A DNA stretch of 64,000 bases from Yuukianura sp. NJ FZ-2021 (lineage: Eukaryota). The stretch's first letter is position 1. The number at the start of each line of letters is the position of its first letter. Positions 1 through 34,300 of this stretch are shown piece by piece. The stretch is from the NCBI GenBank assembly GCA_046563655.1, contig CM102283.1, forward strand, positions 4,278,001 through 4,342,000, written 5' to 3'. The position numbers were made by a program, and so were the translations under genes. Under the pieces are notes generated by a model. That model was not told where the DNA came from and did not search any database. It worked only from the letters and a program-made list of their open reading frames with translations.

Positions 1-514
1 TTACTTTATAGTGTCGGCACGCCTAAAAAGAAGACCGCTGTCAAGAGCCAAATGCTATGGGCAATTGACAACTTCAGTAGGTCTAAATGCGGTCAGATTA
101 TGTTGTGGTTATTTAGAGACATTTTGTAACATTTTGCGACATTCGACGACAAAAAACGACAAACGTTGAAGTTGAGTTAATTTGACAAATATGCTTCTGT
201 GGGCTTATGTTTGACGAGATTTACTCGACACACGTCTCTTGAGGTAAGTGGTTCGATAAACCACCTTGAGATGAAGAATAGGAAGCGTTATGTTTATTTG
301 ACCGGGAGTAAACAGGGAATTCATCTCGTTGTTATTTGTTTTCCAATATTTACTTTATAGTGTCGGCACGCCTAAAAAGAAGACCGCTGTCAAGAGCCAA
401 ATGCTATGGGCAATTGACAACTTCAGTGGGTCTCCTTGCGGTCAGATAATGATGTGGTTATTTAGAGACATTTTGTACCATTTTGTGACATTCGACGACA
501 AAAAACGACAAATG

Positions 515-2412
515 TGTAGTCCCAACGAAGAAGGGCGTACCTCGGATTTTGAAATTTTTTTTTCCTTGGAGACGAGAAAAGTAAATAAATTTCGCCAATA
601 GTCGGAATCAAAAATGTCTGCAGATTTCGATTTCAAAAATGCAATTAGAAATCGCCTTACCAAAGTGTCGATGGTACAAGTAACTTTTTTCCGATAAAAA
701 CTTCGTACTTAGCAAAGTAGCGAAAGTGCAAAATATTTTTCATTGTATTCACGAAAACTTTGGAAATTACTGAAATAGTTTCGCACCCTCATTAAATTGT
801 GGCAACTGCTTTGAAAATTTTCAATTGCATTGACGAAAAGAACTGAAAATTATTTCATGGAAGCCAATTTGTCAAAGTACATATCCAGCCTCACTAAACC
901 TAGATAAGGGCCAGAGTGGGGAAGCGGGCCCTTACTTCAGAAGTCAATGTCAACTCGATTCAGAGAACTCAAGTGTTTTCTTGTGAGGTCGACGTTTCGC
1001 ACATCACTTTTCACAGGCGCCACAGTCATATAACTTCAAATTTTTTCAAAATTTTCGAATATCTTCAATGATATTAAAAGATCAGCGAGAAGTAGACCGA
1101 CCTGAATTTAACCATACAATATAATAAAATAATTGCTCAGCAATAAGGCGGTTTTCTACAACAAACTCAAAGTAACCTAGTAACCCCGTTTTACACATTA
1201 ATGATCAAATCCGGGTCATTATATGTTCATTCGTGAAAACCGGAACGAAATCCGTCCAGCAGTTTCTGACTAGTGTGGCTGGTTTTTTCCAGCGTTGCTG
1301 CAAGCTTAAACGTACAGTGGCTTAGTAGCCACTCCCACTGGATATCCACTGGAAGAAATGCACCCAAAATGGGAACTTTTAGCGGATGTAAGAAATTCAG
1401 AATTTAGCGCGAAATTCAAAAAAAAAATTCAAATTTAAAATTATAAAATAATATCACAAAGAGGTTCTTTTATCTTTCATCGTTAAATTTAATAATTTAT
1501 TTAAAACTCATACAAAAACGGTATATCCTTCGTCTTGTACGGTAATTTGAATTGTTTAGGCTTTTTGTATCTAATTAATTCAAACCCCGAGCGCAACGCT
1601 CAAGCGAGTTGGGTTTGATTTGGGTTTCGATTTGGGTTCATCCAGTTTGTCCTTTGCTTCCACCGGATATACAGCCGTGGACCAAATGTCGAAACAGTGG
1701 ATATCCAACAACACTGTTTTTTTTAATACAAACCAAAAATACCTGGTTTTTGGTTTAAAGCATGATTTATTTGGTTTTTAACCAACCAACCAACCACTTT
1801 AAACCAACATGTCCACAAAAACTCGATATTTCTCAGAAAAATGAATATATCCATTGATTTCAGTTCCAACAATGTTCCTAACAGTGTGAAAAAGGGTTAG
1901 TAATTTGGAAAAAGAAAAACGAGTTACTACAAAAGAGAGAATGAATTTCATTTCATTCAAAAACAAGACTTTTCTGTTCATTCGGTATCCCCTTTTCCCC
2001 ATTTACTCAAGTTGGTTTAAACCTAATTAATGTGAATAAAAACCGTTTGGTTTAAATCGTGGTTTAAACCATGGTTTAGATCATTTCTCTTAAACCAAGG
2101 CCACCCTGTTTCTCATAATTAATCCGGACAGACAGACATACAGACATACAGACAGACACACAGACAGACATGTATAATATTATAATAATATTGTCGCCTT
2201 TACAATAACTCTTAACAGCCAACGAATTTACAACACAGCTCGCCGAAACAGAATTACACACAGACAGACACCCAAACATAATAACATGAATCTTTCGGAA
2301 ATGAATTCGTTAATTTCGTTGCCGACTCTCGTTAAATTTTGTTTACGTTTTTTCTTGGCAACGCAAGTCGTCATCGCGTTTTGAGGTACGCCATTCTTCG
2401 TCGGAGCTATAG
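515..2412. mobile_element. ~1.9-kb non-autonomous TIR DNA element, copy 1, inserted in the satellite
   Basis: Imperfect terminal inverted repeats: TAGTCCCAACGAAGAAGGGCGTACCTC (517) versus the reverse complement of GAGGTACGCCATTCTTCGTCGGAGCTA (ends 2409). Satellite AAATG is duplicated at 510-514 and 2413-2417. No transposase ORF. Contains a (CAGA)n-type microsatellite near 2126-2170. Superfamily not assigned. Confidence 0.75.
1271..2108. mobile_element. Degenerate nested hAT-like MITEs inside the 1.9-kb element
   Basis: Outer ends TAGTGTGGCTGGTTT / AAACCAAGGCCACCCTG, flanked by TTTCTGAC / TTTCTCAT. Inner element 1290-1716 has ends CAGCGTTG / CAACACTG and GATATCCACT motifs shared with the MITE at 39368. 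TSDs are imperfect. Confidence 0.4.
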
Positions 2413-4779
2413 AAATGTTGAAGTTTAGTTAATTCGACAAACATGCTTCTGTGAGCTTATGTTTGACGAGATTTACTCGACACACGTCTCTTGAGGTAAG
2501 TGGTTCGATAAACCACCTTGAGATGAAGAATAGGAAGCGTTATGTTTATTTGACCGGGAGTAAACAGGGAATTCATCTCGTTGTTATTTGTTTTCCAATA
2601 TTTACTTTATAGTGTCGGCACGCCTAAAAAGAAGACCGCTGTCAAGAGCCAAATGCTATGGGCAATTGACAACTTCAGTGGGTCTCCTTGCGGTCAGATA
2701 ATGATGTGGTTATTTAGAGACATTTTGTACCATTTTGTGACATTCGACGACAAAAAACGACAAATGTGTAGTCCCAACGAAGAAGGGCGTACCTCGGATT
2801 TTGAAATTTTTTTTTCCTTGGAGACGAGAAAAGTAAATAAATTTCGCCAATAGTCGGAATCAAAAATGTCTGCAGATTTCGATTTCAAAAATGCAATTAG
2901 AAATCGCCTTACCAAAGTGTCGATGGTACAAGTAACTTTTTTCCGATAAAAACTTCGTACTTAGCAAAGTAGCGAAAGTGCAAAATATTTTTCATTGTAT
3001 TCACGAAAACTTTGGAAATTACTGAAATAGTTTCGCACCCTCATTAAATTGTGGCAACTGCTTTGAAAATTTTCAATTGCATTGACGAAAAGAACTGAAA
3101 ATTATTTCATGGAAGCCAATTTGTCAAAGTACATATCCAGCCTCACTAAACCTAGATAAGGGCCAGAGTGGGGAAGCGGGCCCTTACTTCAGAAGTCAAT
3201 GTCAACTCGATTCAGAGAACTCAAGTGTTTTCTTGTGAGGTCGACGTTTCGCACATCACTTTTCACAGGCGCCACAGTCATATAACTTCAAATTTTTTCA
3301 AAATTTTCGAATATCTTCAATGATATTAAAAGATCAGCGAGAAGTAGACCGACCTGAATTTAACCATACAATATAATAAAATAATTGCTCAGCAATAAGG
3401 CGGTTTTCTACAACAAACTCAAAGTAACCTAGTAACCCCCGTTTTACACATTAATGATCAAATCCGGGTCATTATATGTTCATTCGTGAAAACCGGAACG
3501 AAATCCGTCCAGCAGTTTCTGACTAGTGTGGCTGGTTTTTTCCAGCGTTGCTGCAAGCTTAAACGTACAGTGGCTTAGTAGCCACTCCCACTGGATATCC
3601 ACTGGAAGAAATGCACCCAAAATGGGAACTTTTAGCGGATGTAAGAAATTCAGAATTTAGCGCGAAATTCAAAAAAAAAATTCAAATTTAAAATTATAAA
3701 ATAATATCACAAAGAGGTTCTTTTATCTTTCATCGTTAAATTTAATAATTTATTTAAAACTCATACAAAAACGGTATATCCTTCGTCTTGTACGGTAATT
3801 TGAATTGTTTAGGCTTTTTGTATCTAATTAATTCAAACCCCGAGCGCAACGCTCAAGCGAGTTGGGTTTGATTTGGGTTTCGATTTGGGTTCATCCAGTT
3901 TGTCCTTTGCTTCCACCGGATATACAGCCGTGGACCAAATGTCGAAACAGTGGATATCCAACAACACTGTTTTTTTTAATACAAACCAAAAATACCTGGT
4001 TTTTGGTTTAAAGCATGATTTATTTGGTTTTTAACCAACCAACCAACCACTTTAAACCAACATGTCCACAAAAACTCGATATTTCTCAGAAAAATGAATA
4101 TATCCATTGATTTCAGTTCCAACAATGTTCCTAACAGTGTGAAAAAGGGTTAGTAATTTGGAAAAAGAAAAACGAGTTACTACAAAAGAGAGAATGAATT
4201 TCATTTCATTCAAAAACAAGACTTTTCTGTTCATTCGGTATCCCCTTTTCCCCATTTACTCAAGTTGGTTTAAACCTAATTAATGTGAATAAAAACCGTT
4301 TGGTTTAAATCGTGGTTTAAACCATGGTTTAGATCATTTCTCTTAAACCAAGGCCACCCTGTTTCTCATAATTAATCCGGACAGACAGACATACGACATA
4401 CAGACAGACACACTGAAGCGGACAGGGACTGACGAGGGACGGATTCGGAACTCCGGAGGAAACCGAGTAGTTAGGCATAGGTCAAGTAGGAGGACTATGT
4501 TCTCTGAGTGTAGGTTACAGAAAGATCTTGATTCACATTTTCTGTAGCGGGAGTCTCTTCCCAACCTTCAACAAGTGAACATCTCAATAAAAGTTATTCC
4601 ATTAGTTCACTGTTGTTGTCACGACCAGTTCATTTTCCAGTTGATGTTGGCACATTAGGAGAACCAAGTATTGTTGACCTCAGGTCAAATCTTCTCTCCA
4701 GGAAGATTCGACCTGAACTGAAGATTTCCCTGTAGAGGAAATCACAGTATCGGTCTCAGGGACTGCGGGGTTGTTGCAG

Positions 4780-4794
4780 TGGCGACCGAAGGGA
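4780..4794 (+). promoter_or_regulatory. Primer-binding site of the Gypsy element (probably tRNA-Arg)
   Basis: TGGCGACCGAAGGGA begins 1 nt after the 5' LTR end. TGGCGACC is complementary to the GGUCGCCA 3' end typical of tRNA-Arg; the tRNA identity is inferred. Confidence 0.75.
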
Positions 4795-5055
4795 TCATTC
4801 CAGTGATGTCATGTTCTCAACTGAAATGAAAGGTCAAGAGGTCAAGTGAGACTTTCCGGTAGAGAAAGGCTCAACTGAAGACAATTGAAGAAGAAGACGA
4901 GATAAACCGATGAGAATTTCCCTGTAGAGGAAATTCTGACCTACCAGCTGATTGATTTTCCTGTAGAGAAAAGCAATCCAGCATTGGAATAAATCAACAA
5001 CCTACCTGTATTTTCCGGTAGAGAAAAGACGGGTCAGGTCAAAGGTCAAATAAAG

Positions 5056-5435
5056 GCACGGGTGCTGCCAAAAATTTTCCAAAAATCGTTTTCACGCACG
5101 GGTGCTGCCCGATTTTTTCAAAAATTCAAACACTTTGAAATTTTCCCGTAGAGAAATGTTCAGAGGTCAAGGACACCAAACCAAAGGACAGAGAGCAATT
5201 CGTCGCTCATTTTGAAAAATCCTGAAGAGATTTTTCGATAGACTGAACCGATTTTTCCGTAGAGAAAATCGTTCATTGTCCATTTGATGCCAAATTAAAG
5301 GAAGGAAGAGATTCATATAACAACCCTGACATAAAATAAAGGCACGGGTGCTGCCAAAAATTCCAAAATCAAACATTACGCACGGGTGCTGCCCAAAATT
5401 TTTTCAAAAATTCGAAATCACGCATGGGTGCTGCC
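5056..5435 (+). repeat. Five copies of GCAYGGGTGCTGCC in the Gypsy 5' leader
   Basis: Copies at 5056, 5096, 5342, 5380 and 5422, each followed by a related A/T-tract spacer. Confidence 0.9.
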
Positions 5436-5656
5436 CGATTTTCCAAAAATTACCAAATACTTTGATTTCCCGGTAGAGGAAATCAAAAACCCAAGGAGAG
5501 GAACAAGTTATAAATTGGAGTTGAAGCTCCTGAAGAGAGCATCGACACCAAGACCATTTCAAAACCAATTGAAACAAACAGAATCCTAAAAAACCAACTC
5601 AGTTAACTGGATTAATTGAAATTCCTGTAGAGAATTTCGTTTTCCAGTATTAACTA

Positions 5657-6094
5657 ATGAGCAGAAGGGAAGTGAGAGATTTGGATCGAAACTCTCGTGC
5701 ATTCCTACAAGGATTTAACATGGACAGACAAAACATAAATCAAATTCCTGAAGAACCAATTGATGATGATGATGTTGAAAGTGACATGCAAATTCAAAAT
5801 CCAGTAGATGAAGATGATTACTCAAATGGAAGTTCAGATGCAAGTTCCGTTGTTCAACGAACTGTAGCAAACCAAGTCCCTATCGTCTCATCTACTGCTT
5901 CAACTATCACAACCCAAGCTCCAACAGCAACAACAGGCATGCGCACTACGGCTTCTGGTCAATCCAGTTCACGTGCTGTACCGAGTGGAGCAGATTACGT
6001 TCGCATTCCAGAATCGAGTCAAGTTAATGAACAAAATGATGCCGAGAGTACCAATCAGAAACCAGATTTAAACTCCCAAGGGAGACACCAATAA
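5657..6094 (+). CDS. Low-complexity acidic, Ser/Thr-rich ORF1 of the Gypsy element (possible gag N-terminal remnant)
   Basis: 145-aa ATG ORF in the gag position. No capsid or zinc-knuckle motif is recognisable. Confidence 0.4.
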   Translation: MSRREVRDLDRNSRAFLQGFNMDRQNINQIPEEPIDDDDVESDMQIQNPVDEDDYSNGSSDASSVVQRTVANQVPIVSSTASTITTQAPTATTGMRTTASGQSSSRAVPSGADYVRIPESSQVNEQNDAESTNQKPDLNSQGRHQ

Positions 6095-6102
6095 CCACCT
6101 CG

Positions 6103-7683
6103 ATGTGTGTTCTCCCGATAATCCACAAAATCTCAAGAGGTGTACCTACAACTCAAGTTATTTCAATTCAATTCAAATTTTCTGCATTCTTGGACTCAGT
6201 GTCTAAGTTTTGCATGATGACAGAACAATTGACAAAACACATCCAATCAAAAATCAAAATTCAATCCAAAATTCCAATTATTCTCAAATGTGACGCATCC
6301 GACATTAGCTTGGGCACCGCGCAAGTTCAAGCGTTAGATGGAAAGGATCGGCCAATCTTATTCATCTCCAAAATCCTAAAGAAACCGGAACGGAGTGCAC
6401 ACATTTTCGTTCTCTCACGAGCTCCAGTTGACAGTCATGACACTGAAGGAACGGACGATCCAGAAGAGATCGTCTGTACCCTTGTGTGTTTCTGTTACGA
6501 GACACCGACTTCGAACCAAATCAAAATTGATCAAGAAAATGAAATTCAAACTTCACGTCTCAAGAAATTGATTCGTGATGACCCTTCAAATTCCAAGTGT
6601 ACACACTTCTTAATTGAAGTTGGAATAGTGAAGCGTCAAGTCGAGATTCCGCTCAAGAGAATCAAAAAGTACTCTCTCGCAGATACTACCGAGGTTCACT
6701 CAAAAGTAGCTGAAACTCAAATTCAAAAAATGGAAATTCCGGGTTTCCAAAAATGTACATCCAGTGCAGAGGAACCTAATCAAGTTCAGTCGGCAGGGAT
6801 CGTACCAGAGTCAAACCAAACCAATATGTCAAAACAGAAGCGCGTTTTGCAAAAAATCAAGATTCCAGTTATCCTAACGTCACTCCAAAATGAAATTCAG
6901 AAGATTTTTCATGATGCACCGAAGTCAGGTCATCTTGGAGTTAAGAAGACAAAAGAGGAAATCGAAGATCGATGTTTCTGGAACAGAATGAATAAGGACA
7001 CTGCTGACTACGTCAAGTCATGCAAAATTTGTCAAACGACGAAGCCAGACAATACCCTACCATCTGGGTTACTTCAATCAACAAAAGTTACACTTACCCT
7101 TTTGAACTTAGGCAACGATTTGCCACTTCCGTTTGACAGAAATTTGGAAGCTAAAGGAAACACCAATTTTGATGAAGAAAGCGCGAAATTGACAGATTTA
7201 CCCGAGAAACTACAAGAATTAATCAAATGGGTACGCGAGAACATGGAGGAGGAACATGAAGAAAATAAGAAAATGTACGACAGTTCTCATCGAGATGTTA
7301 CATACGACAGTGGTGATTTAGCCTTAACTCGAAATCACCCAATTCCCAAGAAGGACGATGAGATGATGCAAAAATCTTCAAAACGATGGCTAGGCCTTTT
7401 CAAAATTACATCAAAAACCGCAGATGCAAACTACGAGTTAGCAGATCCAGTCACAAACAAGAAATTCGGGAGACGTCACGTTTTGGAGCTAAAACCATTT
7501 TTTGTTCGAGAAGAATCTGTGTCAGAAATCAAGAACAATGACATTCGGAAAAGTCAACCAATTACCAGGAAGTTACGCGAGAAGAAACCAACCAGTGACA
7601 TTCCGACAAGTACAGCAGTTACCAGCAAATTACGCGAAAGAAAACAAGTAAATTATAGGTCATTGGCAGGCCTACGTCATTAG
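6103..7683 (+). CDS. pol: Deleted Gypsy pol derivative: RNase H fragment, integrase H2C2 zinc domain and integrase C-terminus
   Basis: LKCDASDISLG...RPILFISK matches the start of RNase H. FHDAPKSGHLGVKKT...CFW...VKSCKICQ is the HHCC domain. KRWLGLFKI is GPY/F-like. No RT YxDD and no rve DDE core are visible. Confidence 0.8.
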   Translation: MCVLPIIHKISRGVPTTQVISIQFKFSAFLDSVSKFCMMTEQLTKHIQSKIKIQSKIPIILKCDASDISLGTAQVQALDGKDRPILFISKILKKPERSAHIFVLSRAPVDSHDTEGTDDPEEIVCTLVCFCYETPTSNQIKIDQENEIQTSRLKKLIRDDPSNSKCTHFLIEVGIVKRQVEIPLKRIKKYSLADTTEVHSKVAETQIQKMEIPGFQKCTSSAEEPNQVQSAGIVPESNQTNMSKQKRVLQKIKIPVILTSLQNEIQKIFHDAPKSGHLGVKKTKEEIEDRCFWNRMNKDTADYVKSCKICQTTKPDNTLPSGLLQSTKVTLTLLNLGNDLPLPFDRNLEAKGNTNFDEESAKLTDLPEKLQELIKWVRENMEEEHEENKKMYDSSHRDVTYDSGDLALTRNHPIPKKDDEMMQKSSKRWLGLFKITSKTADANYELADPVTNKKFGRRHVLELKPFFVREESVSEIKNNDIRKSQPITRKLREKKPTSDIPTSTAVTSKLRERKQVNYRSLAGLRH

Positions 7684-9944
7684 TTGAGTCAAAATAATAA
7701 TTAATCATTAGTTAAGAAAATATTCAAATTATTATAATATAAATCACAATGTTGATAGATTTATAATTTTCCTTCATTATTTATTGGTACTGAAATAGTA
7801 TTAGTCCAGTACATTTAGGCGTAAGTGAAGAATAATCGTATGTTAAAAGTTAAATCAGTTTCCGATAAGTCAGAGTTTTAGTCACAACCTCACTTTAGAG
7901 CGCTAACTCACAATCATTTATCTAACTATCTCACTTGCTTTCTAGATTCAGCACAGTACAGTCTAAAGATTCACTCTAATTTCCCTGTAGAGGAAATTGG
8001 TAATTGAAATTCTCCAGAAGAGAGAATTTCTACTTCTAAAAATGTTTTACTGATTTTCCTGAAGAGAAAATCGGTGTTGACTTCTCCGTAGAAGAAGTGG
8101 ACAATGTCACAAACGTTGAACTGAAGAAGAAATCAAAATTATTGCCGACTTCTGACGAAAGTGTCAACAACACTCAATTTACTGACAAACCAATGGAAGT
8201 GACAAGCAGTTGAAACGTAACTTTACTTCAAAACAAATTGGCACAACGATATGCTGAAGAAGACATTGCTGACATAACTGATGAGATCAACATCTAACAA
8301 CATCAGAGACAAGTTTTGACAGTTCCTACAACAATTCAACAATCTAACTTCAAAGATTTACTCATTTGTTTCTCGAATGGACACAACAGGCAAGAATGCC
8401 CGAAAGTCAACCAACAACCGGACAGAAAAGCAATATTTTGGAAAGAAAACAATCCCGGAACCTCTATTTTGAACAATGTCCAGTCAACAGAATTCATTTG
8501 ACTCAAAGAACTAACATGAAAAAACGGGAGAACCTTAAGACAAAACGTGGGAATTCTGGACGTGTCGAGTGGAAACGAGACGATAAGAAGACGAAGATTT
8601 TATCCGCTGGTCGAGGTCGGAGGACCGAGCATGGAGATGGCGCTGATGGAGGTGCGTTTCGCGGGCGCAATATGAAGCGGACAGGGACTGACGAGGGACG
8701 GATTCGGAACTCCGGAGGAAACCGAGTAGTTAGGCATAGGTAAAGTAGGAGGACTATGTTCTCTGAGTGTAGGTTACAGAAAGATCTTGATTCACATTTT
8801 CTGTAGCGGGAGTCTCTTCCCAACCTTCAACAAGTGAACATCTCAATAAAAGTTATTCCATTAGTTCACTGTTGTTGTCACGACCAGTTCATTTTCCAGT
8901 TGATGTTGGCACATTAGGAGAACCAAGTATTGTTGACCTCAGGTCAAATCTTCTCTCCAGGAAGATTCGACCTGAACTGAAGATTTCCCTGTAGAGGAAA
9001 TCACAGTATCGGTCTCAGGGACTGCGGGGTTGTTGCAACACAGACAGACATGTATAATATTATAATAATATTGTCGCCTTTACAATAACTCTTAACAGCC
9101 AACGAATTTACAACACAGCTCGCCGAAACAGAATTACACACAGACAGACACCCAAACATAATAACATGAATCTTTCGGAAATGAATTCGTTAATTTCGTT
9201 GCCGACTCTCGCTAAATTTTGTTTACGTTTTTTCTTGGCAACGCAAGTCGTCATCGCGTTTTGAGGTACGCCATTCTTCGTCGGAGCTATAGAAATGTTG
9301 AAGTTTAGTTAATTCGACAAACATGCTTCTGTGAGCTTATGTTTGACGAGATTTACTCGACACACGTCTCTTGAGGTAAGTGGTTCGATAAACCACCTTG
9401 AGATGAAGAATAGGAAGCGTTATGTTTATTTGACCGGGAGTAAGCAGGGAATTCATCTCGTTGTTATTTGTTTTCCAATATTTACTTTATAGTGTCGGCA
9501 CGCCTAAAAAGAAGACCGCTGTCACGAGCCAAATGCTATGGGCAATTGACAACTACATTGGGTCTCCTTGCGGTCAGATAATGATGTGGTTATTTAGAGA
9601 CATTTTGTACCATTTTGTGACATTCGACGACAAAAAACGACAAATGTTGAACTTTAGTTAATTCGACAAACATGCTTCTGTGGGCTTATGTTTGACGAGA
9701 TTTACTCGACACGCGTTTCTTGAGGTAAGCAGTTCGAAAACCACCATGAGATGAAGAATAGGAAGCGTTCTGTTTATTTGACCGGGAGTAAACAGGGAAT
9801 TCATCTCGTTGTTATTTGTTTTCCAATATTTACTTTATAGTGTCGGCACGCCTAAAAAGAAGACCGCTGTCACGAGCCACATGCTAGGAGCAATTGACAA
9901 CTACAGTGGGTCTCCATGTGGTCAGATAATGATGTGGTTATTTA

Positions 9945-11219
9945 CCCTCTTCGCGACGGGTAACCCAAAAAGTGGCTTTGGCTTGCTCGTACTCACAGAC
10001 GGGATCGACAGAACCAAAGTGTGTTTTCTGGACGGGCGACCCAGAAAGGGGCTTTTGTTCCTGTGCATACCTGGACGGGAGTCCCAAAATAGGGTTTTCC
10101 TATGTTTAAGCCTACTTATTGCTTTTCGCTTTTGTCTTACTCTTTGCTTATTACTACCATCGTGTAGCCCCATCTGTTGTGATAATTTTTTGTTTTTACG
10201 CTGTTCCAAAATTCCAATATCTTCTCATTCAATATTGGAGTTGAATATATTTTGTGCTTTTTCTGGAAAGATTTTGATCGTTTCGGTCTCTGTAATTAAT
10301 TCTGGATCCGAATTGTTTTTACGGGACCAAAATCAATTCTTGAGATAATTTAATAACATATAATATAAATCTTATTAAGTTATGGTATTAGTGCTTCAAG
10401 TTCGGACCCGAAATGAAAAGTTCGAACTTCGAACCTTAAGTTCCAACTTCTTCACAAGGAGTTCGAACTTTCGAACCTTTTTTAACAGGCAAAAAGCAAG
10501 GTTAGGTTAGGTTAAAAGCAATGGTCAGTGAAAAAAAAAAGTGAACGCGATCATTTTAGCAAGTCACTTTTGAAATGTGTTTTCCTCTGTATATGTATTC
10601 TTTTTCAGACAATGACTTTAAAAAATGGTTTAAATTTAAGAAAAACTTATTCTTGTGGCAATGTGCTAGGACTTTGGTTGAAATCCATATGTTGCTGGAT
10701 ATTTTGCCTATATTGACCTATAGATTCGAACTCTTTTGGCTGAGGTTCGAACTTCGAACCGGGAAAAATAGTCGAGTTCGAGTTCGAAAGTTCTAACTTG
10801 AAGCACTATATGGTATATATATTATGTTATTATATAATATAATAATGATAAAATGCTATTATATTATATGCTTATTTTATAACTTTATTTTTTATTACAT
10901 ACTATATATGTAATATGTAGTATATTATGTAATATTATATAACATATATAATATTATAAGCTATATAATATAATATAACGTATAATATTATTTAATATTA
11001 TACAATAGATAATAATATTATTTAATAAATATACAGATTGAAATGGGCTATTCGATTTATGGGCAGAGACTGTAATGAGATTTGTTGCTTAGAAAAAGAG
11101 TCTGGTGGAATCAGTCTACGATTTGGTTACCCGTCTGAGATGTCCGAGTAGGGAGAACCCCAGAATGGGTCCCCCGTCTAACAAACGCACTCGGTGCTAA
11201 TGACCTTGTGGCGAAAAGG
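9945..11219. mobile_element. Non-autonomous TIR element with CCCT..AGG termini (piggyBac-like), inserted in a satellite monomer
   Basis: The satellite stops at GGTTATTTA (9944) and resumes at TTAGAGAC (11220), with TTA duplicated. Ends CCCTCTTCGCGACGGG / CCTTGTGGCGAAAAGG are imperfect inverted repeats. The site is not a canonical TTAA, so the superfamily is tentative. Confidence 0.65.
10389..10808. mobile_element. hAT-type MITE nested in the 9945-11219 element
   Basis: TIR TAGTGCTTCAAGTT / AACTTGAAGCACTA. Perfect 8-bp TSD TATGGTAT at 10381-10388 and 10809-10816. Many subterminal GTTCGAAC motifs. Confidence 0.9.
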
Positions 11220-14091
11220 TTAGAGACATTTTGTAACATTTTGTGACATTCGACGACAAAAAAACGACAAATGTTGAAGTTCAGTTAATTTGACAAACAT
11301 GCTTCTGTGAGCTTATGTTTGACCAGATTTACTCGACACACGTCTCTTGAGGTAAGTGGTTCGATAAACCAAATTGAGATGAAGAATAGGAAGCGTTATG
11401 TTTATTTGACCGGGAGTAAACATGGAATTCATCTCGTTGTTATTTGTTTTCCAATATTTACTTTACACTGTCGGCAAGCCTTAAAAAAAGACCGCTGTAA
11501 CGAGCCAAATGCAAGGGGCCATTGACAACTACAGTAGGTCTAAATGCGATCAGATTATGTTGTTATTTAGAGAGATTTTGTAACATTTTGTGACATTCGA
11601 CGACAAAAAACGACAAACGTTGAAGTTCAGAGCATAGGTCATCCAGAGGCAGTTGACACTTGATTCTACTTAAACCGGCCTGCCTAAAAATGTAGAACTG
11701 AGAAACCGTTTTCACGGAGTTGATGCACCAAAACGCAGCTCAAAATTTTCTGTGCGGATGTGAGGTCGTATTTTGTGCATGAGTTCCACCAAAATTGGGT
11801 TGGCAAATCTATCATTTAAGGCTCTGTTAGCCCGGCAACGACGAGGTCTGATAACTACTGAAAATTGACCATTTTCTAAAATCAGTTAAAAATCGTAGCA
11901 TCGACATAGAAGGTCAAGTAAGGTATCGAAACCTGCGGAAGAGCATGTTGGGGTATTCTATAGAATCATACTTTATATACCTTAACCCGTTTAAAAGTTA
12001 CAGCCGATAAAACAAAAGTAGTTACGAATTATCGTTGTTTTTTAGGTTTAAAAGGTGGAATTTCTAACTTTTTATTCTATAGAAAACCCCGCAATCACTT
12101 TTCACAAATTTTGATACCATTAATTGTATTTCTATGTCCATCCTAAGGGTCCCTGGCGCAAATTTTACAAACTGAGAAAAAATTCCGGAAGTTTAATTTC
12201 GAATGGAAGTAAATCACCAAGACATCGGCAATTGTTTGCATGTTTGTACGAAAGGTAAAACGAATCTCCGCATTCCACTCTGATTCCTCCGCGGAAGGAT
12301 TTGAGTGAAAACGAACAAACATGCCGATGTCTGTTGTTAAACAGAAACCGATTTCGCAGTTGTTAACAGAAACGATTGATGTTAAATAATCAACAATAAG
12401 CCGTCCTTAATTGAACCAAAATCATGTTCCAGATTTTTAGGCCCAAAATATTTGCACCGAATTGATGTTCTTAATTTGTTGAGCAAGGTGCACATAATGT
12501 ATTGTCGATGTTGCTATGGCAATGTACTATTAGCGAAAAGAGCGTAAACCAAATGCCATCAAAATAATGATATAGAAATTGAGATTTGTGCAGGATGCAC
12601 AAATTTGAACGCTGAAGGAGGACGGGTCGGATATCCCTTCCTTTAAATCGAAATCGGTTCATGAAAATGCACAGTGAGTGAAATTAAGCGCATAAGTTAT
12701 TGAACCGAAAATCGCTTGTTTATAATCAAAATTATAAAAATTTGTTGCAAAGGCAAATTTTAACCCTGCCAAGCACTGTTTCCATATTATGAGTTTAAGC
12801 CAGATTTTCTACCCTCTAGTTAAGTTTTAATTTAACAACGTAATTAAACTAGCTGTCAGAAAATGACAGGATCAAAGCTTCGTTGTTTAAATATATTTTG
12901 AGTGTAATCGAAACCAAAATGTTTCCGGGAAACGACTGCACTTAGGGTGCATAAAGTGGTCGCCCATTTCCACGTTGTTAATATAACACTTTGAGTGCAA
13001 TGCAGACTTAATGTAAACACTTGAGGCATACATAACCCCCCGGACAAAATGGAGCTTATGTTTTAGCGCAAAAGATACTAAAAAAGCGAACGGACAGACA
13101 GACAGACAAAGTCGTATCAATAGTCTTCTTCAGCATGTCGTAGACATGCGTCTCCAGAAGACTAAAATGTATTCGCCGAAATCTGTCACTAAAAGCTGTT
13201 AAGAGTGCACAATTAGTAGGAAGGTACTTCACACAAAATATAGCTAAACAATACAGAAAAGGGTTAATATCTGTGATTAAGAACTGTCGGCCAGAAACAG
13301 TGTCAGCAAGCATTTGTATTGCAACTAGTAATTTAAAAATTCAAATCGACAGGACCGGGGAGGCATATGAGCGCTCGCCACGGGCGAGACTCACAAACAT
13401 CCGTCTCCAGTGTCACTCCATTTATGGACAGGCCTTGAGAGCTGTATGGCTGACGCAACTATGGGTGTATATAAGTAGCGATCCAGATGCGGTCTGGGAC
13501 ACACTGTAGTAGGACACTCTCTAGTAAGATACTCTAGTAGGAGTCATTCTCCTTAGTAGGAGTCGCTCTCTAAGCATTATGTAGGAAGTACGGATAAGAG
13601 TACCCTGTAAGAGTATGGGTAAGACTCACTATGTGAGACCAGCACTAAGTACTAGGATAGGGAGTAACTGTGAGAGAATGCGTACCCGTAGGATAGGTCA
13701 TGTAGGTCAGTAAGTTAAGCAGTAGTAAGCAGTAGTGACCTCAATAAACTATTCACCGGAGTTGGTCTGTGTATTGTCATCGGCCTTTATTGCCTCATGT
13801 ACGGAAGGTCATCTTAGAGGGAATCAGGGCTGACATTTTGGTACGAAACTTAGGATGTACTAAGTCAGGCCCATCCTAACTATTTAGGAGAAAAGATGGG
13901 ACTCCTCTAAGATTTCCTAAGTTGCCGTATTTTGATACGAATCCCAGGACTGTCCTAAGTCTGGAGTTGGGCAATGGGAGATAGGTACTTAGGATCGCCC
14001 ATATTTTGGAAAAGATATGATTTCCTATCTTTGTCAAAATTCCTCCTATCTTTAGGGTCGGTCTTTCCACGTCCTAACTCAATCCTAACAA

Positions 14092-14822: not shown

Positions 14823-15486
14823 TAATGTGAATTTATGTGAAAGTTTGACTTCAAAACAATATACTATACTTATATATAATGTAATAGTGCAATATACATT
14901 AATTAATATGCATTAATTAATACATTAATGTACTATACCATACTATATAATACAATAATTATATTTAATCATAAGTTTTTAATTATTTATAGGAATATTT
15001 TTTGTTAATAGTAATTATTTAACAATATTTTAAAATCCGATAAGCTGTGTTAATAGTAGGTTCAGGGATCCTATCTTTACGAAAATCTGGTTTGTCCTAT
15101 CTGTTCCTAAGTTTGGTGCTATCCTAAAGTTTGGACGTCATAAGTGTACCAAAATGTCAGCCCAGTGTTCCGTCCGTCATACAGGCTCCACTGAGTCCTC
15201 GGTGTGCTTCTGGACGATATGACGACTCATTCATACCACAGAGGTCACACTAAATTCAACACGAGATTTTGTGCTCAAGGAGTGTAAAGAAAACAAGGAT
15301 TTCCGAACCGCACGGCTAATCTGGATTTATTAAATGGATTCAAGAAACGTCAATTGTCTACCTTTTAATACTAACTTCAATTCAGATATGCGACCTTGAC
15401 TTTTTGGGAAAAAAAATTTTTTTTTTTTGCTTTTTAAAAATTTTCAATACATAAGTCGATTAGGAACTTTATGTAACTCACAAGGC

Positions 15487-16864
15487 GTAGGCAAGGCCTG
15501 GTTATTTTGGATTTTGATGAAACTCGACAGATGACCTCGAAATGACCCCAAATGACCCCCAAATTTTTCTTTTGATGCAATGGGTCGAAATGAAAAAGTC
15601 GGTCAAAAAGTTCAAAATTTTGAAATCCTTATGAGGTTTAACACGTCTTTTTCAAGTTTCACGTGTCCCCCCTTGGGAGTTTTTGTGGAACTGCGCTTTT
15701 TAGCTTCAAATATAAAACAATCCCAAAATATAGTAAGCCGCGAGTGAACAAGAACAAGAACAGCCTTTTCAAAAAATGCACAGTTTTTGTTGTAAAAAGT
15801 GCAACTTTTTCTACATTCTACAATCCTACGATTGCTACAGAAGTGAAGTTGCGTTGTTACTTCGAAGTTTCAAGGTAAATTAAAATGTGTATATGTTTTT
15901 TTTTTATATTCCCACTGACTGTTGCCTAAAATGAATTTGATTTTTTCTGTACCGTTATTAGCAAAGGAGACAAATCCTGTAGCTGTCGGTGCAGAGCTGC
16001 TGCGTTTATTGGAAGCGGAGTATCCATCCTACGTACAAGGAATTCCATCCGAAATTGACTTCATGATTGCAAAGAAACTTTGAACTTTTTCAAAATTTTG
16101 AACGTTTTTTCAAAATTTGAACTTTTTTTTCAAAATTTTGAACGTTTTTCAAAATTTCGAAATTTTTTTTGAAATTTTGAACTTTTTTCAACAGTTCAAA
16201 AAAAATCGAAATTTTGAAAAAAAAAGTTTAAAATTTTGAAAAAACGTTCAAAATTTTGAAAAAGTTCAAAGTTTCTTTGCAATCATGAAGTCAATTTCGG
16301 ATGGAATTCCTTGTACGTAGGATGGATACTCCGCTTCCAATAAACGCAGCAGCTCTGCACCGACAGCTACAGGATTTGTCTCCTTTGCTAATAACGGTAC
16401 AGAAAAAATCAAATTCATTTTAGGCAACAGTCAGTGGGAATATAAAAAAAAAACATATACACATTTTAATTTACCTTGAAACTTCGAAGTAACAACGCAA
16501 CTTCACTTCTGTAGCAATCGTAGGATTGTAGAATGTAGAAAAAGTTGCACTTTTTACAACAAAAACTGTGCATTTTTTGAAAAGGCTGTTCTTGTTCTTG
16601 TTCACTCGCGGCTTACTATATTTTGGGATTGTTTTATATTTGAAGCTAAAAAGCGCAGTTCCACAAAAACTCCCAAGGGGGGGACACGTGAAACTTGAAA
16701 AAAGACGTGTTAAACCTCATAAGGATTTCAAAATTTTGAACTTTTTGACCGACTTTTTCATTTCGACCCATTGCATCAAAAGAAAAATTTGGGGGTCATT
16801 TGGGGTCATTTCGAGGTCATCTGTCGAGTTTCATCAAAATCCAAAATAACCAGGCCTTGCCTAC
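15487..16864. mobile_element. Foldback element: ~1.38-kb near-perfect palindrome
   Basis: GTAGGCAAGGCCTGGTTATTTTGG (15487) is mirrored by CCAAAATAACCAGGCCTTGCCTAC (ends 16864). The arms match over about 650 bp apart from homopolymer lengths. The centre (16080-16270) consists of TTCAAAATTTTGAA repeats. Confidence 0.9.
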
Positions 16865-17170
16865 TCCTTGTCAGTAACATCATATCCCTTCGCACCTTCC
16901 ACTTTTTATTCCATACTACAGCCAATTCAATTTCAAAGTTTCTTCGGTTTTTGAAAAAAAAAATGCTAGTAGCGGTATTTTGTTCAGGTACTTTGTTTTT
17001 AAAAAATGCACCAACTTTATTTTGTGCTTTTGAACGTCTTAAGGTAAATGCTACGTTTTAACAATAGAAAAAGTTCTACGAGTCGAGCTATGTTCAGGTT
17101 TGAACAAATCAGCGATCGGAAGTTGGAAAGTGAATATGAATATAAAGAAAAATCTATTTCTGGAAATTTT

Positions 17171-31012: not shown

Positions 31013-31311
31013 CTGATATGATGAGATTTTGCAAATGTTCTTTAAAATAATTTTAAAAAACTACATGAAAAAGGCATAAGATAGCTTAAGTAAATTGCTA
31101 GGTAACTTTCGACCATAGGTTATGCTGGAATCAGCTACTTTTTGGTGGTTCCAAGCCATTGCTTCAAATGCTTTGTTTCTGACCGAAAAGTTTCTAAAAA
31201 TTACTTCTAAAACCCTAGCTTTGAGATTTTAGAAACAAACTTTTTAGAAACAATTCTCCTTTAGAACCAATAATTCATTTGCGCACTTTTGGCGTGCTTC
31301 TCTTCTGGGTA

Positions 31312-34300
31312 TGTTGAGGAATCAGGTGGAGATCCGCCAATCTCCCTTCCTCTTTGTGTGACCTCCACTTTAGGTTAAGAGAGTACACTTGTACTCATAG
31401 CGCTCTTCCGACTCCACTTGTCGCCTTGAGAGAGGACGAAGTGTCAACCTCACCGGAGGTGACGTGGCCATTCTCAAGGGCGATGAGTGGAGGCGGAATC
31501 GCCTCAAATCCTAGTTTTAGTTTCAAGTCTAAGTCTCATTCCAGCACTCGCTGCAATAGCTTCTCTTTTTGTCGTGCTCACTTGAGCCAAATTGTTTTCC
31601 CTACAATAGTGGTCACGTGACCTTGTTATTGTTCTAAGTCAGGCCCACTGGGGTTAAGTCTAACTCTCTCGAGTAAGTTAAGGTTGCCTTTAATTGTGTC
31701 CTCCTCCTTGGAAAGTGGCAACAATAAAGCAACTAAAAATCATCTACAGTTTTCAACCCGGACCAGCAAGAAAGCTACAAATTTCTTGACACATCCCTTA
31801 ATATACACGCCTTAAGTGTACAAAAGGATTTCAGAATCTGGACAGTCGTTTTTGTGGTAGCAGCAAAAGAATTGCACTTGACAAATTGACCGCATTCATC
31901 CACCCATTTCATTGGCGCCCAACGCCGGGATCTCTCCCGAAACTACTTCAAAGGGTGTGAAAAGTGTGTGACAATAACTGAAAGTTCGCCAAACCAAAAT
32001 GGCGACACAGAAGAAATCCATGAGCGGGTCAGGGACATCTGAAGGTCAACTTCAAGAACCACCAGTGCTGTTCGAGTGGGCTCAGTTTGGACTCAAAGCG
32101 ACCTTTGACCAGATCCAAGACTGCTACAACAAGGAGTTCAAGGACTGGAAAAAGGTAATGTCTGTTGATGTTCCTCTCAAAGAAATGCTGATCACTGATC
32201 TGAAGAACAAGTTCTCATCTTGGGAGAGGGAGGTACTTTTGGCAATGTCAGTCATCAAGGATGACGCTGCACTCGCAGATTGCAAATCCACCATCAGTAA
32301 AGGTCAGGAAATAATTACTTCTTGTTTTCGTGCATTGTTTACGGCCAAAGGGTTGTTGGAAGAAACCGCTGCCAAAGCGGAAGCAGCCGCCAGAGCTTCA
32401 CTTCCACCAGCTTCTATGAACAATACCAGTGTTTTGAACTCGTCAGTGACTGGTGCTTCTAAAACGCCCTCTGTGAAGTTGCCAAAAGTTGATTTGCCGA
32501 CATTTGATGGAAAGCATGAGGACTGGGTGAGCTTTCGTGATTTGTTTTCCGCTATTGTTGTGAACAACGATGACCTCAGCAGTGTGTTTAAGATGTCATA
32601 CCTCAAATCGTCATTGAAAGGAGACGCTGCTCTGCAAATTCGGAATTACGCAGTTGCTGAGGGTCAGTTCGAGGAGGCGTGGCAAGAAGTCATAAAACGG
32701 TACGAAAATACTCGCGAAATTGTTCTTTCATTGATTCGTAGGATTGCTGACGCCAAGTCAGTGACCTCTGATAGTGCCACGTCTCTCCAGCGCCTTATCG
32801 ACACCGTGACGGAAGCTTTGAGGTCACTCAAGGTCCTCAAAAGAAAGGTAGACGACTGGGACGACCTCCTTGTCTATCTTATCTTGGAGAAGCTAGACCT
32901 TGAGACAAGAAAGGAGTGGGGCAAAGTTCTTCCTGCGGACAACAAAATGCCCAAGTTCAAGGACTTGACGGACTTTTTGGAGGTCAGGATCCGCAGCCTT
33001 CAATCCATCTCCAAGGGCAACACTCGTCGCACTGATAATCACCATCGTGTACATCATGTGGCAGAAGGGAATTCCACTTCCAAAAACTGCGTTTGTTGTA
33101 GCAAGGAAAAGCACCCCATCTACAAGTGTCCTGAATTCAATCAGCACACAGTTGCTGATCGTCAGAAGCTCGTCACGCAGAAACGTCTCTGCTACTCATG
33201 CCTTTCTCCTTCTCACTTCACGAAGGAATGCAACTCTACGTCTCGCTGCCGCCAGTGTCAGAAGAGGCATCACACCCTTCTTCATGACACTCAGAGGGGT
33301 GGGAAGGGCTCTCCGTCCTACAATACTGCCCCACCTCCAATCACATCTTCATTTGTTCCTGGTGGCACTGCATTCCTTCCAGAGGCCTCTTTAGCTCCAG
33401 CCACCATCAACTCGGCCATCATCAGCGGCTTATCTTCTTCTCGACCTCTGCTGGCTACTGCCATGGTCAAGGCGAAGAACAAGCATGGGACAGATTCCTG
33501 GGTGCGTGTCTTCCTGGATTCTGGTGCTCAGGGTAACTTGATAAGTGAAGCTTGTGTTCGTCGACTTGGACTTCCTCGGTCAAGAAACGAACCCCATATC
33601 TACGGTGTTGGAGACACGTACGTTGGCCAGAGTAAAGGAGTGACAACGCTCACCTTGACTTCACATGATGGAGCTTATCAATTCTCTGTTGCTGCTCTCA
33701 TCATGCCAAAGGTCACGACCCCTCAACCCGACCATCCGTTGGACACTTCGACGTGGATCCACCTCAAGCGACTTCCCCTAGCTGATCCAAACTTCAACAC
33801 ACCAGGAGAAGTGGATATGATCCTTGATGTCTCCTGCTTCTTCACCTTGGTCACTGGAAGGAAGGTTGATGGCCCACCAGGAACTCCTTCTGCTCTCAGC
33901 ACTCGCCTAGGATGGATCATTGGTGGCTCAGTCTCAGAACAACATGCTCAAGTTCATGTCATTCGAGTTCATCAAGTTTCACATTTGGACACACTGGACA
34001 TTGTGAAGCGGTTCTGGGAGTTGGAAGAAGTTCCACATGCGATCAACTGGACTGAAGAAGAAAGGAGAACCGAGGACCATTTCACATCTACGATTTTACG
34101 TGACACGGATGGAAGGTATGTCACTCGACTTCCTTTCAAACGTGATCCCAAGGTCCTCGGAGCGTCTCGCGACATTGCAGAACGCCGTCTCTTCAGTCTG
34201 GAGCGTCGCCTTGACAAGTTTCCAGAGAAGAAGCCGGAGTACATTGACTTCATGCGACAGTACGAGTCTCTTGGCCACATGAGGAAGCTTCCGTCTTCAA

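Follow-up and report, generated by a model that had tools for sequence, protein, structure and literature searches.

An array of covarying CNGWAGA hairpins along a Ty3/gypsy-type element, a possible Gag-read packaging signal

A young LTR element and its hairpins

The window (the whole 64-kb stretch of DNA analysed here) contains, on the plus strand, an LTR element at 4414-9037 that carries the hairpin array described below. The element has the following parts:

4414..4778, plus strand: 5' LTR, 365 bp, TG...CA; AATAAA at 4586
4780..4796, plus strand: putative tRNA primer-binding site (PBS), starting with TGG one base past the LTR end
5657..6094, plus strand: ORF1, a truncated, disordered-looking Gag N-terminus
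6040..7683, plus strand: pol remnant, an RNase H fragment and the integrase zinc-binding domain
8673..9037, plus strand: 3' LTR; AATAAA at 8845

This is a young, defective retrotransposon copy. The two LTRs are identical at 364 of 365 positions, the sole difference being at 4483, and a 4-bp target-site duplication, ACAC (4410-4413 and 9038-9041), flanks the element. Pfam matches are limited to an RT_RNaseH fragment and Integrase_H2C2; alignment to full-length relatives (P0001, P0003, and P0004) indicates that RT and the integrase core (rve) are missing. No Pfam family was found in ORF1, the zinc knuckle is absent from the element copy, a search for homologues of ORF1 or of the family's Gag produced none, and this copy showed no accessory ORF; the 64-kb window yielded no tRNA genes, leaving the PBS without a matching tRNA. 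With its LTRs, target-site duplication, PBS, RNase H followed by integrase, and loss of essential domains, the element is, judging from its sequence, a deleted, non-autonomous Ty3/gypsy derivative, as the earlier note on this DNA had held. A longer variant of the family has an additional 1215 bases in the gag region and the same leader as the element.

The plus-strand hairpins listed here come from a scan for the CNGWAGA motif, the minus-strand ones from the covariance model; bit scores are those of the model, and each hairpin was folded as RNA:

4720..4746, plus strand: CTGTAGA, U5 of the 5' LTR; 31.2 bits
4847..4873, plus strand: CGGTAGA, leader; 35.6 bits; 5 bp, A-G mismatch, 4 bp
4912..4938, plus strand: CTGTAGA, leader; 34.3 bits
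4951..4977, plus strand: CTGTAGA, leader; 37.6 bits; 5 bp, A-G mismatch, 4 bp
5006..5032, plus strand: CGGTAGA, leader; 32.8 bits
5136..5162, plus strand: CCGTAGA, leader; 32.3 bits; 4 bp, 2x2 internal loop, 4 bp
5212..5238, plus strand: CTGAAGA, leader; 31.0 bits; arms swapped relative to the common stem
5247..5273, plus strand: CCGTAGA, leader; 32.2 bits; closing pair U-G (C-G in other family copies, position 5256)
5461..5487, plus strand: CGGTAGA, leader; 37.1 bits; 10 perfect pairs
5520..5546, plus strand: CTGAAGA, leader; 31.4 bits; inner stem GC-rich
5615..5641, plus strand: CTGTAGA; 34.0 bits; 3' end 16 nt ahead of the ORF1 ATG
6451..6477, plus strand: CAGAAGA, pol remnant, in a poorly conserved linker; 31.1 bits; -13.5 kcal/mol
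7975..8001, plus strand: CTGTAGA, 3' UTR cluster; 36.1 bits
8005..8031, plus strand: CAGAAGA, 3' UTR cluster; 32.5 bits
8049..8075, plus strand: CTGAAGA, 3' UTR cluster; 38.5 bits
8076..8102, plus strand: CCGTAGA, 3' UTR cluster; 30.7 bits; closing pair U-A
8979..9005, plus strand: CTGTAGA, 3' LTR; identical to 4720-4746
4685..4711, minus strand: inverted family member, U5 of the 5' LTR, loop CTGGAGA; 27.9 bits, E 1.6e-4
8944..8970, minus strand: second copy of the inverted hairpin, 3' LTR; located with the covariance model

The hairpin at 8979-9005 lies past the AATAAA at 8845 and, being probably beyond the poly(A) site, would be missing from the RNA. The inverted LTR hairpin was outside the training set of the covariance model; its stem of 10 bp includes a single G-T wobble, which reads as an A-C mismatch on the opposite, plus strand, and the hairpin folds at -9.4 kcal/mol on the minus strand versus -7.1 kcal/mol on the plus strand.

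The earlier note had counted 17 stemmed CNGWAGA hairpins, all in sense orientation, and its numbers were reproduced throughout: CTGTAGA x6, CGGTAGA x3, CCGTAGA x3, CTGAAGA x3, and CAGAAGA x2. As had been stated, each LTR has one hairpin (loops at 4730 and 8989); ten precede the ORF1 ATG in the stretch that follows the PBS (4857-5625), a single one sits within the pol remnant (6461), and the 3' UTR has the other four (7985-8086). These represent 16 distinct hairpins and the second LTR copy. When at least four flanking pairs were required (G-U allowed), 17 of the 57 plus-strand CNGWAGA copies in the window, with loops spanning 4730 to 8989, were stem-flanked, against none of the 25 minus-strand copies. 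The element itself contains 25 plus-strand copies, 17 of them stemmed, whereas its dinucleotide-shuffled sequence contained on average 3.6 copies, 0.077 of them stemmed, with maxima of 12 and 2 over 2000 shuffles. Elsewhere in the window (59 kb), none of the 56 copies is stemmed, and the BEL/Pao element located there, a comparison that the earlier note had suggested along with the shuffling, produced no hairpin match. The motif also stands out in an unbiased list of plus-strand hairpins of the element (7-nt loop, at least five Watson-Crick pairs), where it accounts for 14 of 17 entries. Among 49 related Ty3/gypsy loci, a pattern scan detected four lone stem-flanked copies, never two per locus, and the top score in a covariance-model scan of these loci (227,558 bases) was only 16.8 bits. 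Rfam searches gave no match at E≤1 over 4300-9200, nor did the window as a whole have one at the gathering score; the hairpin motif, which the earlier note had not recognised either, corresponds to no catalogued RNA motif (Rfam).

Conservation of the loop and of base pairing

Across the 16 distinct hairpins, the loop never varies at C1, G3, A5, G6, or A7. At N2, U occurs 8 times, G and C 3 times each, and A twice; position 4 (W) has 11 T's and 5 A's. The stems had been described as paired, which they are, but they are longer than noted, at roughly 10 pairs, and in many cases contain a single internal mismatch. The closing pair, C-G, is almost invariant, and an A six bases 5' of the loop is invariant; these two features, and the inverted LTR copy, had been missed. 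All 16 hairpins fold as predicted, both singly and inside the minimum-free-energy structure of the leader, with RNA stabilities of -2.5 to -13.5 kcal/mol.

The claim of compensatory stem variation is borne out, with covariation in 9 of the 10 stem pairs. Overall, 90.6% of the pair cells are paired, compared to 63.5 +/- 2.6% after shuffling (none of 500 shuffles reached the observed value), and sliding the partner lowers pairing to 36-60%; both sides are altered in 46 cells, against 14.8. Pairing in the six outer positions, which are independent of the hairpin selection, is 84.4% versus 55.0% in shuffles (0 of 5000). The identity among the hairpins is 0.83 in the loop, 0.47-0.51 in the arms, and 0.26-0.28 in the flanks (background 0.27); the hairpins are not pieces of longer repeats, and their flanks are unrelated. 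Purifying selection acts on the five fixed loop letters and on base pairing, whereas the stem sequence is free. The G-U pairs, previously taken as a sign of RNA structure, do show the expected excess on the plus strand (9 wobble cells versus 1 A-C cell), but this evidence is weak: they lie mostly in the outer columns, where a T-rich 5' arm opposite a G/A-rich 3' arm makes G-U likely by composition. The minus strand folds with equal energy.

One full copy was read letter by letter, and, as an independent check, other copies of the family were compared through a listing of variants. Among the 40 substitutions listed (462 more exist), at least seven fall inside hairpin windows: three at loop N2, one at W4 (T>A), and three in stems, where a pair is preserved or newly formed (5256, U-G to C-G; 5485, U-A to U-G; 5157, U-U to U-A). 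All seven listed hairpin substitutions, then, either affect free loop positions or leave pairing kept or restored. The three listed N2 variants are all to T, so that N2 is possibly less free than it appears in the element copy. A minority of contigs have small insertions at 7999-8003, which would alter the outer pairs of the hairpin at 7975-8001.

Candidate readers of the array

Each hairpin probably serves as a docking site for some protein that deals with the RNA of the element. The plus-strand genomic RNA would bear 16 distinct copies of an approximately 10-bp stem topped by the heptaloop C-N-G-W-A-G-A, each a candidate binding site of one common loop-reading protein, and the array may act by multivalency. 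Our preferred reading, to which we assign a probability of roughly 40%, is that the array binds, multivalently, a protein encoded by the element, with Gag as the likeliest candidate, and serves as a packaging signal. The reader would be the Gag/nucleocapsid of an autonomous partner, the array would constitute a multipartite Psi-like signal, and deleted copies would have to retain it for mobilisation in trans. More speculatively, the inverted U5 copy might fold in minus-strand strong-stop DNA or antisense RNA and be bound by the same reader.

Several observations argue for Gag. Eleven of the 16 hairpins are located in U5 and the leader (4720-5641), and the stretch from the PBS to gag is the classical position of Psi; there is structured genomic-strand RNA between R/U5 and the ORF1 ATG (5657). 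The motif is family-specific and has been kept despite the loss of most of gag and pol, as well as in the longer variant, and the loop exposes two invariant unpaired G's, with a purine-rich 3' half. On the other side, the four tightly packed 3' UTR hairpins and the one in pol are in non-classical positions for Psi and are equally compatible with export or stability elements, ten stable leader hairpins would impede scanning ribosomes, the copy has no zinc knuckle, and the search for the family's Gag found none. It is plausible, as the earlier note suggested, that a defective copy exploits helper machinery with the aid of the array; given the same leader in the longer variant, the array is not demonstrably special to defective copies.

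The main rival to the Gag reading is that the hairpins recruit a host loop-reading RNA-binding protein for stability, nuclear export, localisation, or translation control, which we consider possible but doubtful; the candidates include a SAM-domain protein of the Smaug/Vts1/ZCCHC14 type and an NXF1-type export receptor. Like the Smaug element, the hairpins combine a 7-nt loop beginning with C1, a free N2, and G3 with a non-specific stem, CNGG-type loops recruit ZCCHC14/TENT4 for viruses including HBV, itself a reverse-transcribing virus (PMC9282228 and PMC2275152, in excerpt), and the inverted LTR loop CTGGAGA is an exact match to CNGGN3. Position 4, however, is A or U in all 16 sense loops and never G, so that the C1:G4 pair defining the CNGG fold is impossible; even a permissive synthetic UUGAC loop retains the 1:4 pair, according to excerpts of PMC2275152. 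As for export, the 3' UTR is a typical place for export or stability elements, and GAAGA, found in 5 of the 16 loops, resembles the AAGACA of the NXF1-binding CTE loop (PMC4174252, in part), but AAGACA is never complete, and the CTE motifs are located in internal loops. The absence of the motif array from 59 kb of host DNA (genes and the BEL element) and, by the model, from the 49 gypsy loci also argues against a host reader.

The remaining alternatives appear improbable. Correction of imperfect inverted repeats by template switching is an established mutational process, and the hairpins might be functionless palindromes that arose by local duplication and were kept perfect by quasi-palindrome template switching during reverse transcription or replication. 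Reverse transcriptases readily switch templates, the arms have a loose common form, and the inverted LTR copy could be a loop flip; such a process would explain perfect stems but not five fixed loop letters in 16 copies with flanks at background identity, nor the uniform orientation (17 versus 0), nor the confinement of loop changes between copies to free positions (4 of 4 among those listed). Only slightly more remote is a kissing network, in which the plus-strand U5 loop UCUCCAG (4695-4701) would pair with CUGWAGA in cis (cyclisation) or in trans (dimerisation). Six of the 7 positions of this loop are complementary to CUG-W-AGA, all five invariant letters included, and U is the commonest N2 (8 of 16), as well as the state of the three listed N2 variants elsewhere. 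The central W, however, always faces C as a mismatch, never being G in the 16 loops, N2 is other than U in the other 8, and the greater stability of the U5 hairpin on the minus strand suggests an inverted member rather than a partner loop. Quite improbable, too, is that the hairpins work as single-stranded DNA or cruciforms, in reverse-transcription intermediates or the integrated copy: the stems do fold on both strands, and the inverted member sits in the part copied into minus-strand strong-stop DNA, but 17 of 17 stemmed CNGWAGA loops are sense-oriented, the wobbles, for what this weak signal is worth, favour the plus strand, and the short, AU-rich stems would make poor cruciforms. Least probable of all is mimicry of tRNA anticodon stem-loops that would attract a tRNA-binding enzyme or synthetase, given that the stems have about 10 rather than 5 bp, the position equivalent to the universally conserved U33 (the second in the anticodon loop) is non-U in 8 of 16, and the PBS is tied to neither tRNA concerned (the window holds no tRNA gene for comparison), even though the loops have 7 nt and 8 of 16 are CUGWAGA, with CUGAAGA and CUGUAGA being what we take to be the anticodon loops of tRNA-Phe(GAA) and tRNA-Tyr(GUA).

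The cis-acting RNA signals of Ty3/gypsy elements, those for packaging among them, are poorly characterised, yeast Ty3 included. Here, one element offers 16 natural stem-swap variants of a small motif with five fixed and two free loop letters, a fixed closing pair, and a fixed stem A, a ready-made mutational set for identifying the reader protein and testing multivalent RNA recognition. Should the reader be Gag, the array would explain the mobilisation of deleted copies, which would parasitise the autonomous partner just by retaining hairpins. It is a tentative and rather unlikely proposition that we have here the first explicit code, in sequence and structure together, by which genomic RNA is recognised in a Ty3/gypsy element (Metaviridae): the heptaloop C-N-G-W-A-G-A, set 16 times on a 10-bp stem of any sequence, with the Gag of the family as its reader and the inverted copy acting in minus-strand strong-stop DNA. 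Should the reader be a host protein, the loops would represent a new code, related to yet distinct from the CNGG code of Smaug/ZCCHC14, which several viruses exploit (PMC9282228, PMC2275152, as excerpted).

Comparison with known RNA signals

In the excerpts available of PMC4053848, the Smaug recognition element (SRE) is a hairpin with a CNGGN0-3 loop, a free N2, and a non-specific stem; there and in PMC2275152 (also in part), the loop fold is defined by the pairing of G4 with C1. ZCCHC14-binding CNGG loops are described for HBV, HCMV, and HAV (parts of PMC4053848, PMC2275152, and PMC9282228), and viral use of such loops extends to 5' and 3' UTRs alike. The array resembles the Smaug element in the non-specific stem (9 of 10 pairs covary), the C-N-G start with N free, and a loop length of 7 nt, which is allowed; unlike in SREs, where they are free, A5, G6, and A7 are invariant. 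Assignment to the Smaug recognition elements was rejected at G4, and only the inverted LTR copy fits.

The constitutive transport element (CTE) of MPMV and the gammaretroviral CTE-like stem-loop are, like the array, cis-acting RNAs of retroelements; AAGA loops (5 of 16) and the 3' UTR cluster add to the likeness. NXF1-binding CTE loops bear AAGACA, with weak copies additive at 4-8 copies (PMC4174252, in excerpt), and the array is likewise multicopy. The array, however, has apical heptaloops rather than the internal loops of a hairpin of about 100-150 nt, and U occupies the first A position in 11 of the 16 loops. The CTE was rejected as an identity for the array, the five closest loops continuing from GAAGA with G; the anticodon mimic was rejected as well, with U at the second loop position in only 8 of 16. 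As in Rev/RRE and the CERV export system of Cer1 (PMC10309623, in part), the array is a multivalent structured RNA that an oligomerising, element-encoded protein could read. The element copy, however, showed no accessory ORF, and no structural resemblance of the array to the RRE was seen.

HIV and MLV have Gag-binding loops with unpaired G's. Another retroviral Gag-binding loop is the purine loop of MMTV (PMC8096270, in excerpt), and packaging of Ty3 relies on imprecisely defined UTR or POL sequences (PMC4974528, in part). Dispersed packaging signals of RNA viruses and of HBV pregenomic RNA consist of many stem-loops that have a recognition motif in common in their loops but differ in stem and affinity (PMC6281560, in part). 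The array differs from described Psi signals in that CNGWAGA is not among the known loops and that pol and the 3' UTR together contain five of the copies. The likeness consists in several stem-loops with a common loop motif concentrated in U5 and the leader, unpaired G's and purines exposed in the loop, and retention by defective copies; as in dispersed signals, one loop motif is combined with stems of varying sequence and stability, and, with 16 near-uniform copies, the array is far more regular than the Psi signals described.

The carrier element and its hairpins

All hairpins with the loop motif CNGWAGA that were detected in the window map to a single Ty3/gypsy-like element:

4414-9037, plus strand: LTR retroelement, the sole carrier of the stemmed CNGWAGA array in the window
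4414-4778 and 8673-9037, plus strand: LTRs of 365 bp each, with one position differing between them
5657-6094, plus strand: ORF1

The LTRs are bounded on both sides by the 4-bp repeat ACAC, and the primer-binding site (PBS) begins with TGG, one base past the 5' LTR end; the window itself contains no tRNA gene. Given the AATAAA at 4586 in the 5' LTR, we infer the R/U5 boundary and take the hairpin-bearing LTR end to be U5. A gag of the family was not recognized, ORF1 belonging to no Pfam family and producing no homologue in the searches made. The domains that Pfam detects in the 547-residue pol remnant are limited to a fragment of RNase H and the zinc-binding domain of the integrase; alignment with full-length relatives shows that the reverse transcriptase and the integrase core are missing, and a CCHC knuckle was sought in the element without success. 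The element is therefore a derivative of Ty3/gypsy that is young and also non-autonomous, the latter in agreement with the earlier note.

The element is inserted in a tandem repeat of the host whose period is ~2252 bp (~2.25 kb; window 1-11630); the repeat families around it (D1-D6) show spacings of 2252 and 6880, the latter being 2252 plus the 4628-bp insertion. For the neighboring Sel1/TPR gene, the closest named relatives come from bdelloid rotifers (~30-34% identity), a weak pointer to a rotifer or a related animal as the probable host. The public runs listed as matching comprise five DNA runs from two studies and no RNA run, and DNA contigs from four public runs (two studies) make it evident that the element belongs to a multi-copy family. 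Compared with the copy in the window, one variant gains 1215 bases between 6037 and 6050; further differences are 217 additional bases after 6406 (site 6406-6411) and a tandemly duplicated 90-base stretch at 8127-8216. Full autonomy would seem to require more sequence than even the longer variant has.

The motif occurs 57 times on the plus strand of the window and 25 times on the minus strand. Stems of at least 4 flanking pairs are seen in 17 of the plus-strand copies, all of them inside the element, and in no minus-strand copy. Within the element, 17 of the 25 plus-strand copies are stemmed, compared with a mean of 0.077 stemmed copies (maximum 2) among a mean of 3.6 copies in 2000 dinucleotide shuffles of the element; in the rest of the window, 0 of 56 copies are stemmed. 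An unbiased list of the element's hairpins (plus strand, 7-nt loop, at least 5 Watson-Crick pairs) contains the motif in 14 of 17 entries. One hairpin is located in each LTR, ten in the leader (the stretch between the PBS and the ORF1 ATG), one in pol and four in the 3' UTR; this placement and the tallies of the loop variants reproduce those of the earlier note. An unstemmed copy, CAGAAGA at 6898 (window 6888-6914), lies in an 11-nt loop closed by the perfect 6-bp stem ATGAAA/TTTCAT, within conserved integrase coding sequence, and may be either a degenerate family member or a chance occurrence.

Covariation, strand and variation between copies

When the 16 distinct hairpins are aligned without gaps over 27 columns, loop positions 1, 3, 5, 6 and 7 are invariant, position 2 is free (U 8, G 3, C 3, A 2) and position 4 is U in 11 hairpins and A in 5. 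The stem is ~10 pairs long, in many cases interrupted by a single internal mismatch, and is closed by a C-G pair in 14 of the 16 hairpins; the A located six bases upstream (5') of the loop never varies, pairing with U in 12 hairpins and standing unpaired opposite G in 4. Every hairpin adopts the expected fold in isolation (-2.5 to -13.5 kcal/mol), and the hairpins also form inside the minimum-free-energy folds of the leader and of the 3' UTR. RNAalifold also proposes a putative C1-G6 pair across the loop, between two invariant letters. In the hairpin at 5212-5238, the arms of the common stem are exchanged, with the loop orientation unchanged.

The compensatory variation of the stems claimed in the earlier note is borne out. 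Across the ten-pair helix, 90.6% of the 160 cells are standard pairs, compared with 63.5 +/- 2.6% after shuffling of the 3' letters (0 of 500 shuffles as high), and sliding the partner by 1-3 columns lowers pairing to 36-60%. Cells with both sides changed number 46 vs 14.8 +/- 3.1, and double changes occur in 9 of the 10 pairs. The hairpins were chosen by at least 4 loop-adjacent pairs, so that the inner pairs are biased, but the outer six pairs, unused in the choice, are 84.4% paired vs 55.0% in 5000 shuffles (shuffle maximum 69.8%). Identity between hairpins is 83% in the loops and 47-51% in the arms; the 30-base flanks are 26-28% identical, that is, at the background level (27% for random leader 30-mers), so the hairpins are not fragments of longer repeats.

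All 17 hairpins are oriented with transcription. The earlier note took G-U pairs to indicate RNA: wobble cells indeed outnumber A-C cells 9 to 1, but this is weak evidence because most of these cells belong to outer columns whose composition favors wobble. Folding energy does not discriminate between the strands of the leader (plus, -258.4 kcal/mol; minus, -274 kcal/mol; both ~4 sd below shuffles). The most economical reading is that the hairpins act in plus-strand RNA, a role at the DNA level being a lesser alternative.

Variation between family copies was assessed on the 40 of 502 substitutions and 12 of 54 indels that were listed. Seven of these 40 substitutions fall inside hairpin windows: loop position 2 changes at 4858, 5258 and 5472, each time to T; loop position 4 changes from T to A at 5474; and in the stems, a U-G closing pair becomes C-G (5256), U-A becomes U-G (5485) and a U-U mismatch becomes U-A (5157). 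By a rough reckoning, about one in six random substitutions would be tolerable in the same way; that all seven listed changes are tolerable argues for constraint on the hairpins. Counter-evidence comes from a minority of contigs with small insertions at 7999-8003, which would alter the outer pairs of one hairpin.

Family specificity, an inverted copy and other repeats

A covariance model trained on the 16 hairpins and run with filters off gives the training hairpins 30.7-38.5 bits. One untrained site in each LTR scores 27.9 bits, and no other site in the window exceeds 17.6 bits:

4685-4711 and 8944-8970, minus strand: inverted hairpin with the loop CTGGAGA and ten pairs including a G-T wobble

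On the plus strand, this wobble becomes an A-C mismatch; the predicted energy is -9.4 kcal/mol on the minus strand vs -7.1 kcal/mol on the plus strand. The molecule in which the inverted copy folds would be minus-strand strong-stop DNA or an antisense transcript.

In 49 gypsy loci from metagenomes (227,558 bases), all of them distant, with best-segment amino-acid identities of 46% or less, and none of which is a copy of the element's own family, the best model score is 16.8 bits, and a pattern scan yields four lone stem-flanked copies, never two per locus. A crude search of 13 of the longer gypsy loci for similar arrays built on different loop words revealed nothing systematic. The BEL/Pao element at 31311-38141, whose terminal repeats are identical and which has an ORF of 1784 residues (Peptidase_A17, DUF1759, DUF5641 and integrase domains), contains none of these hairpins vs 17 in the gypsy-derived element, a comparison proposed in the earlier note. 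The array thus characterizes the element's family and not gypsy elements at large. Searches of viral contigs with the pol remnant yielded no relative, and those with the LTR-end/PBS word yielded no match; a 17-base hairpin word has one match in each of two large phage-like contigs, which we take as chance.

Several other repeats are present in the window. On the plus strand of the leader (5056-5435), five copies of the 14-mer GCACGGGTGCTGCC, four of them exact and one with a single change, are interleaved with the hairpins (0.12 copies expected; absent elsewhere in the window). This 14-mer is GC-rich inside an AT-rich leader, shows no covariation and may serve either as the target of a factor that acts on DNA or as another RNA motif. 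The hexamer AGGTCA, the nuclear-receptor half-site, is found 101 times on both strands vs ~30 expected (0 of 100 shuffles as many), often paired 7-8 bases apart, direct or inverted, also in the element's LTR and leader:

4675-4687, 4831-4844, 5036-5048, 55689-55701 and 62835-62847: examples of AGGTCA pairs

At 15462-16889, a large and almost perfect inverted repeat joins two 464-nt arms (99% complementarity, 88-nt spacer) that lie in turn within 191-nt arms at 96%; it may be a foldback-type element.

Candidate readers of the loop and known systems

A fixed asymmetric loop on free stems, many times repeated, is the hallmark of recognition by a protein through the bases of the loop and the shape of the helix. 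An element-encoded reader is favored because U5 and the leader contain 11 of the 16 hairpins, the motif is specific to the family, the array persists in copies whose gag and pol have been lost, and the loop displays two unpaired G's in its purine-rich half. We put at roughly 0.4 the probability that this reader is encoded by the element, most likely as Gag, and that the array is a putative packaging signal; the family's Gag would bind many hairpins, whereupon the genomic RNA would be packaged.

The main rival, capture of a host loop reader, is somewhat less likely. The loop is similar to those of the Smaug/ZCCHC14 CNGG family, which HBV, HCMV and HAV exploit; however, all 16 sense copies violate the position-4 rule of that family, with A or U there, and the Smaug recognition element was rejected on this ground, whereas CTGGAGA of the inverted copy does match the Smaug consensus CNGGN3. 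With the NXF1-binding loop AAGACA, the hairpin loops have only AAGA in common; no loop contains AAGACA, and a CTE was rejected. Among lesser alternatives, a kissing network between the hairpin loops and the plus-strand U5 loop UCUCCAG is suggested by complementarity at 6 of 7 positions, but the central position is always mismatched, and quasi-palindrome correction, which would make the hairpins a mutational by-product, leaves the fixed loop unexplained. Mimicry of tRNA anticodon loops, which the hairpin loops presumably resemble, was rejected on the second loop letter.

The earlier note did not recognize the motif as a described one, and the searches agree: Rfam has no match for the element region or the whole window, and literature searches of limited coverage, confined to the main texts of openly accessible articles, found no description. 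In a paper on bdelloid LTR elements (PMC5408684), hairpin, stem-loop, UTR and secondary structure have 0 occurrences each. As for known systems, many stem-loops with a common loop motif cooperate in the assembly of RNA viruses and HBV (PMC6281560), and Ty3 packaging relies on UTR or POL sequences described as still undefined (PMC4974528). The array, with its putative reader, is of a kind with the cis-acting multi-hairpin signals known from retroelements and is distinguished by an unusually clean internal proof of structure.
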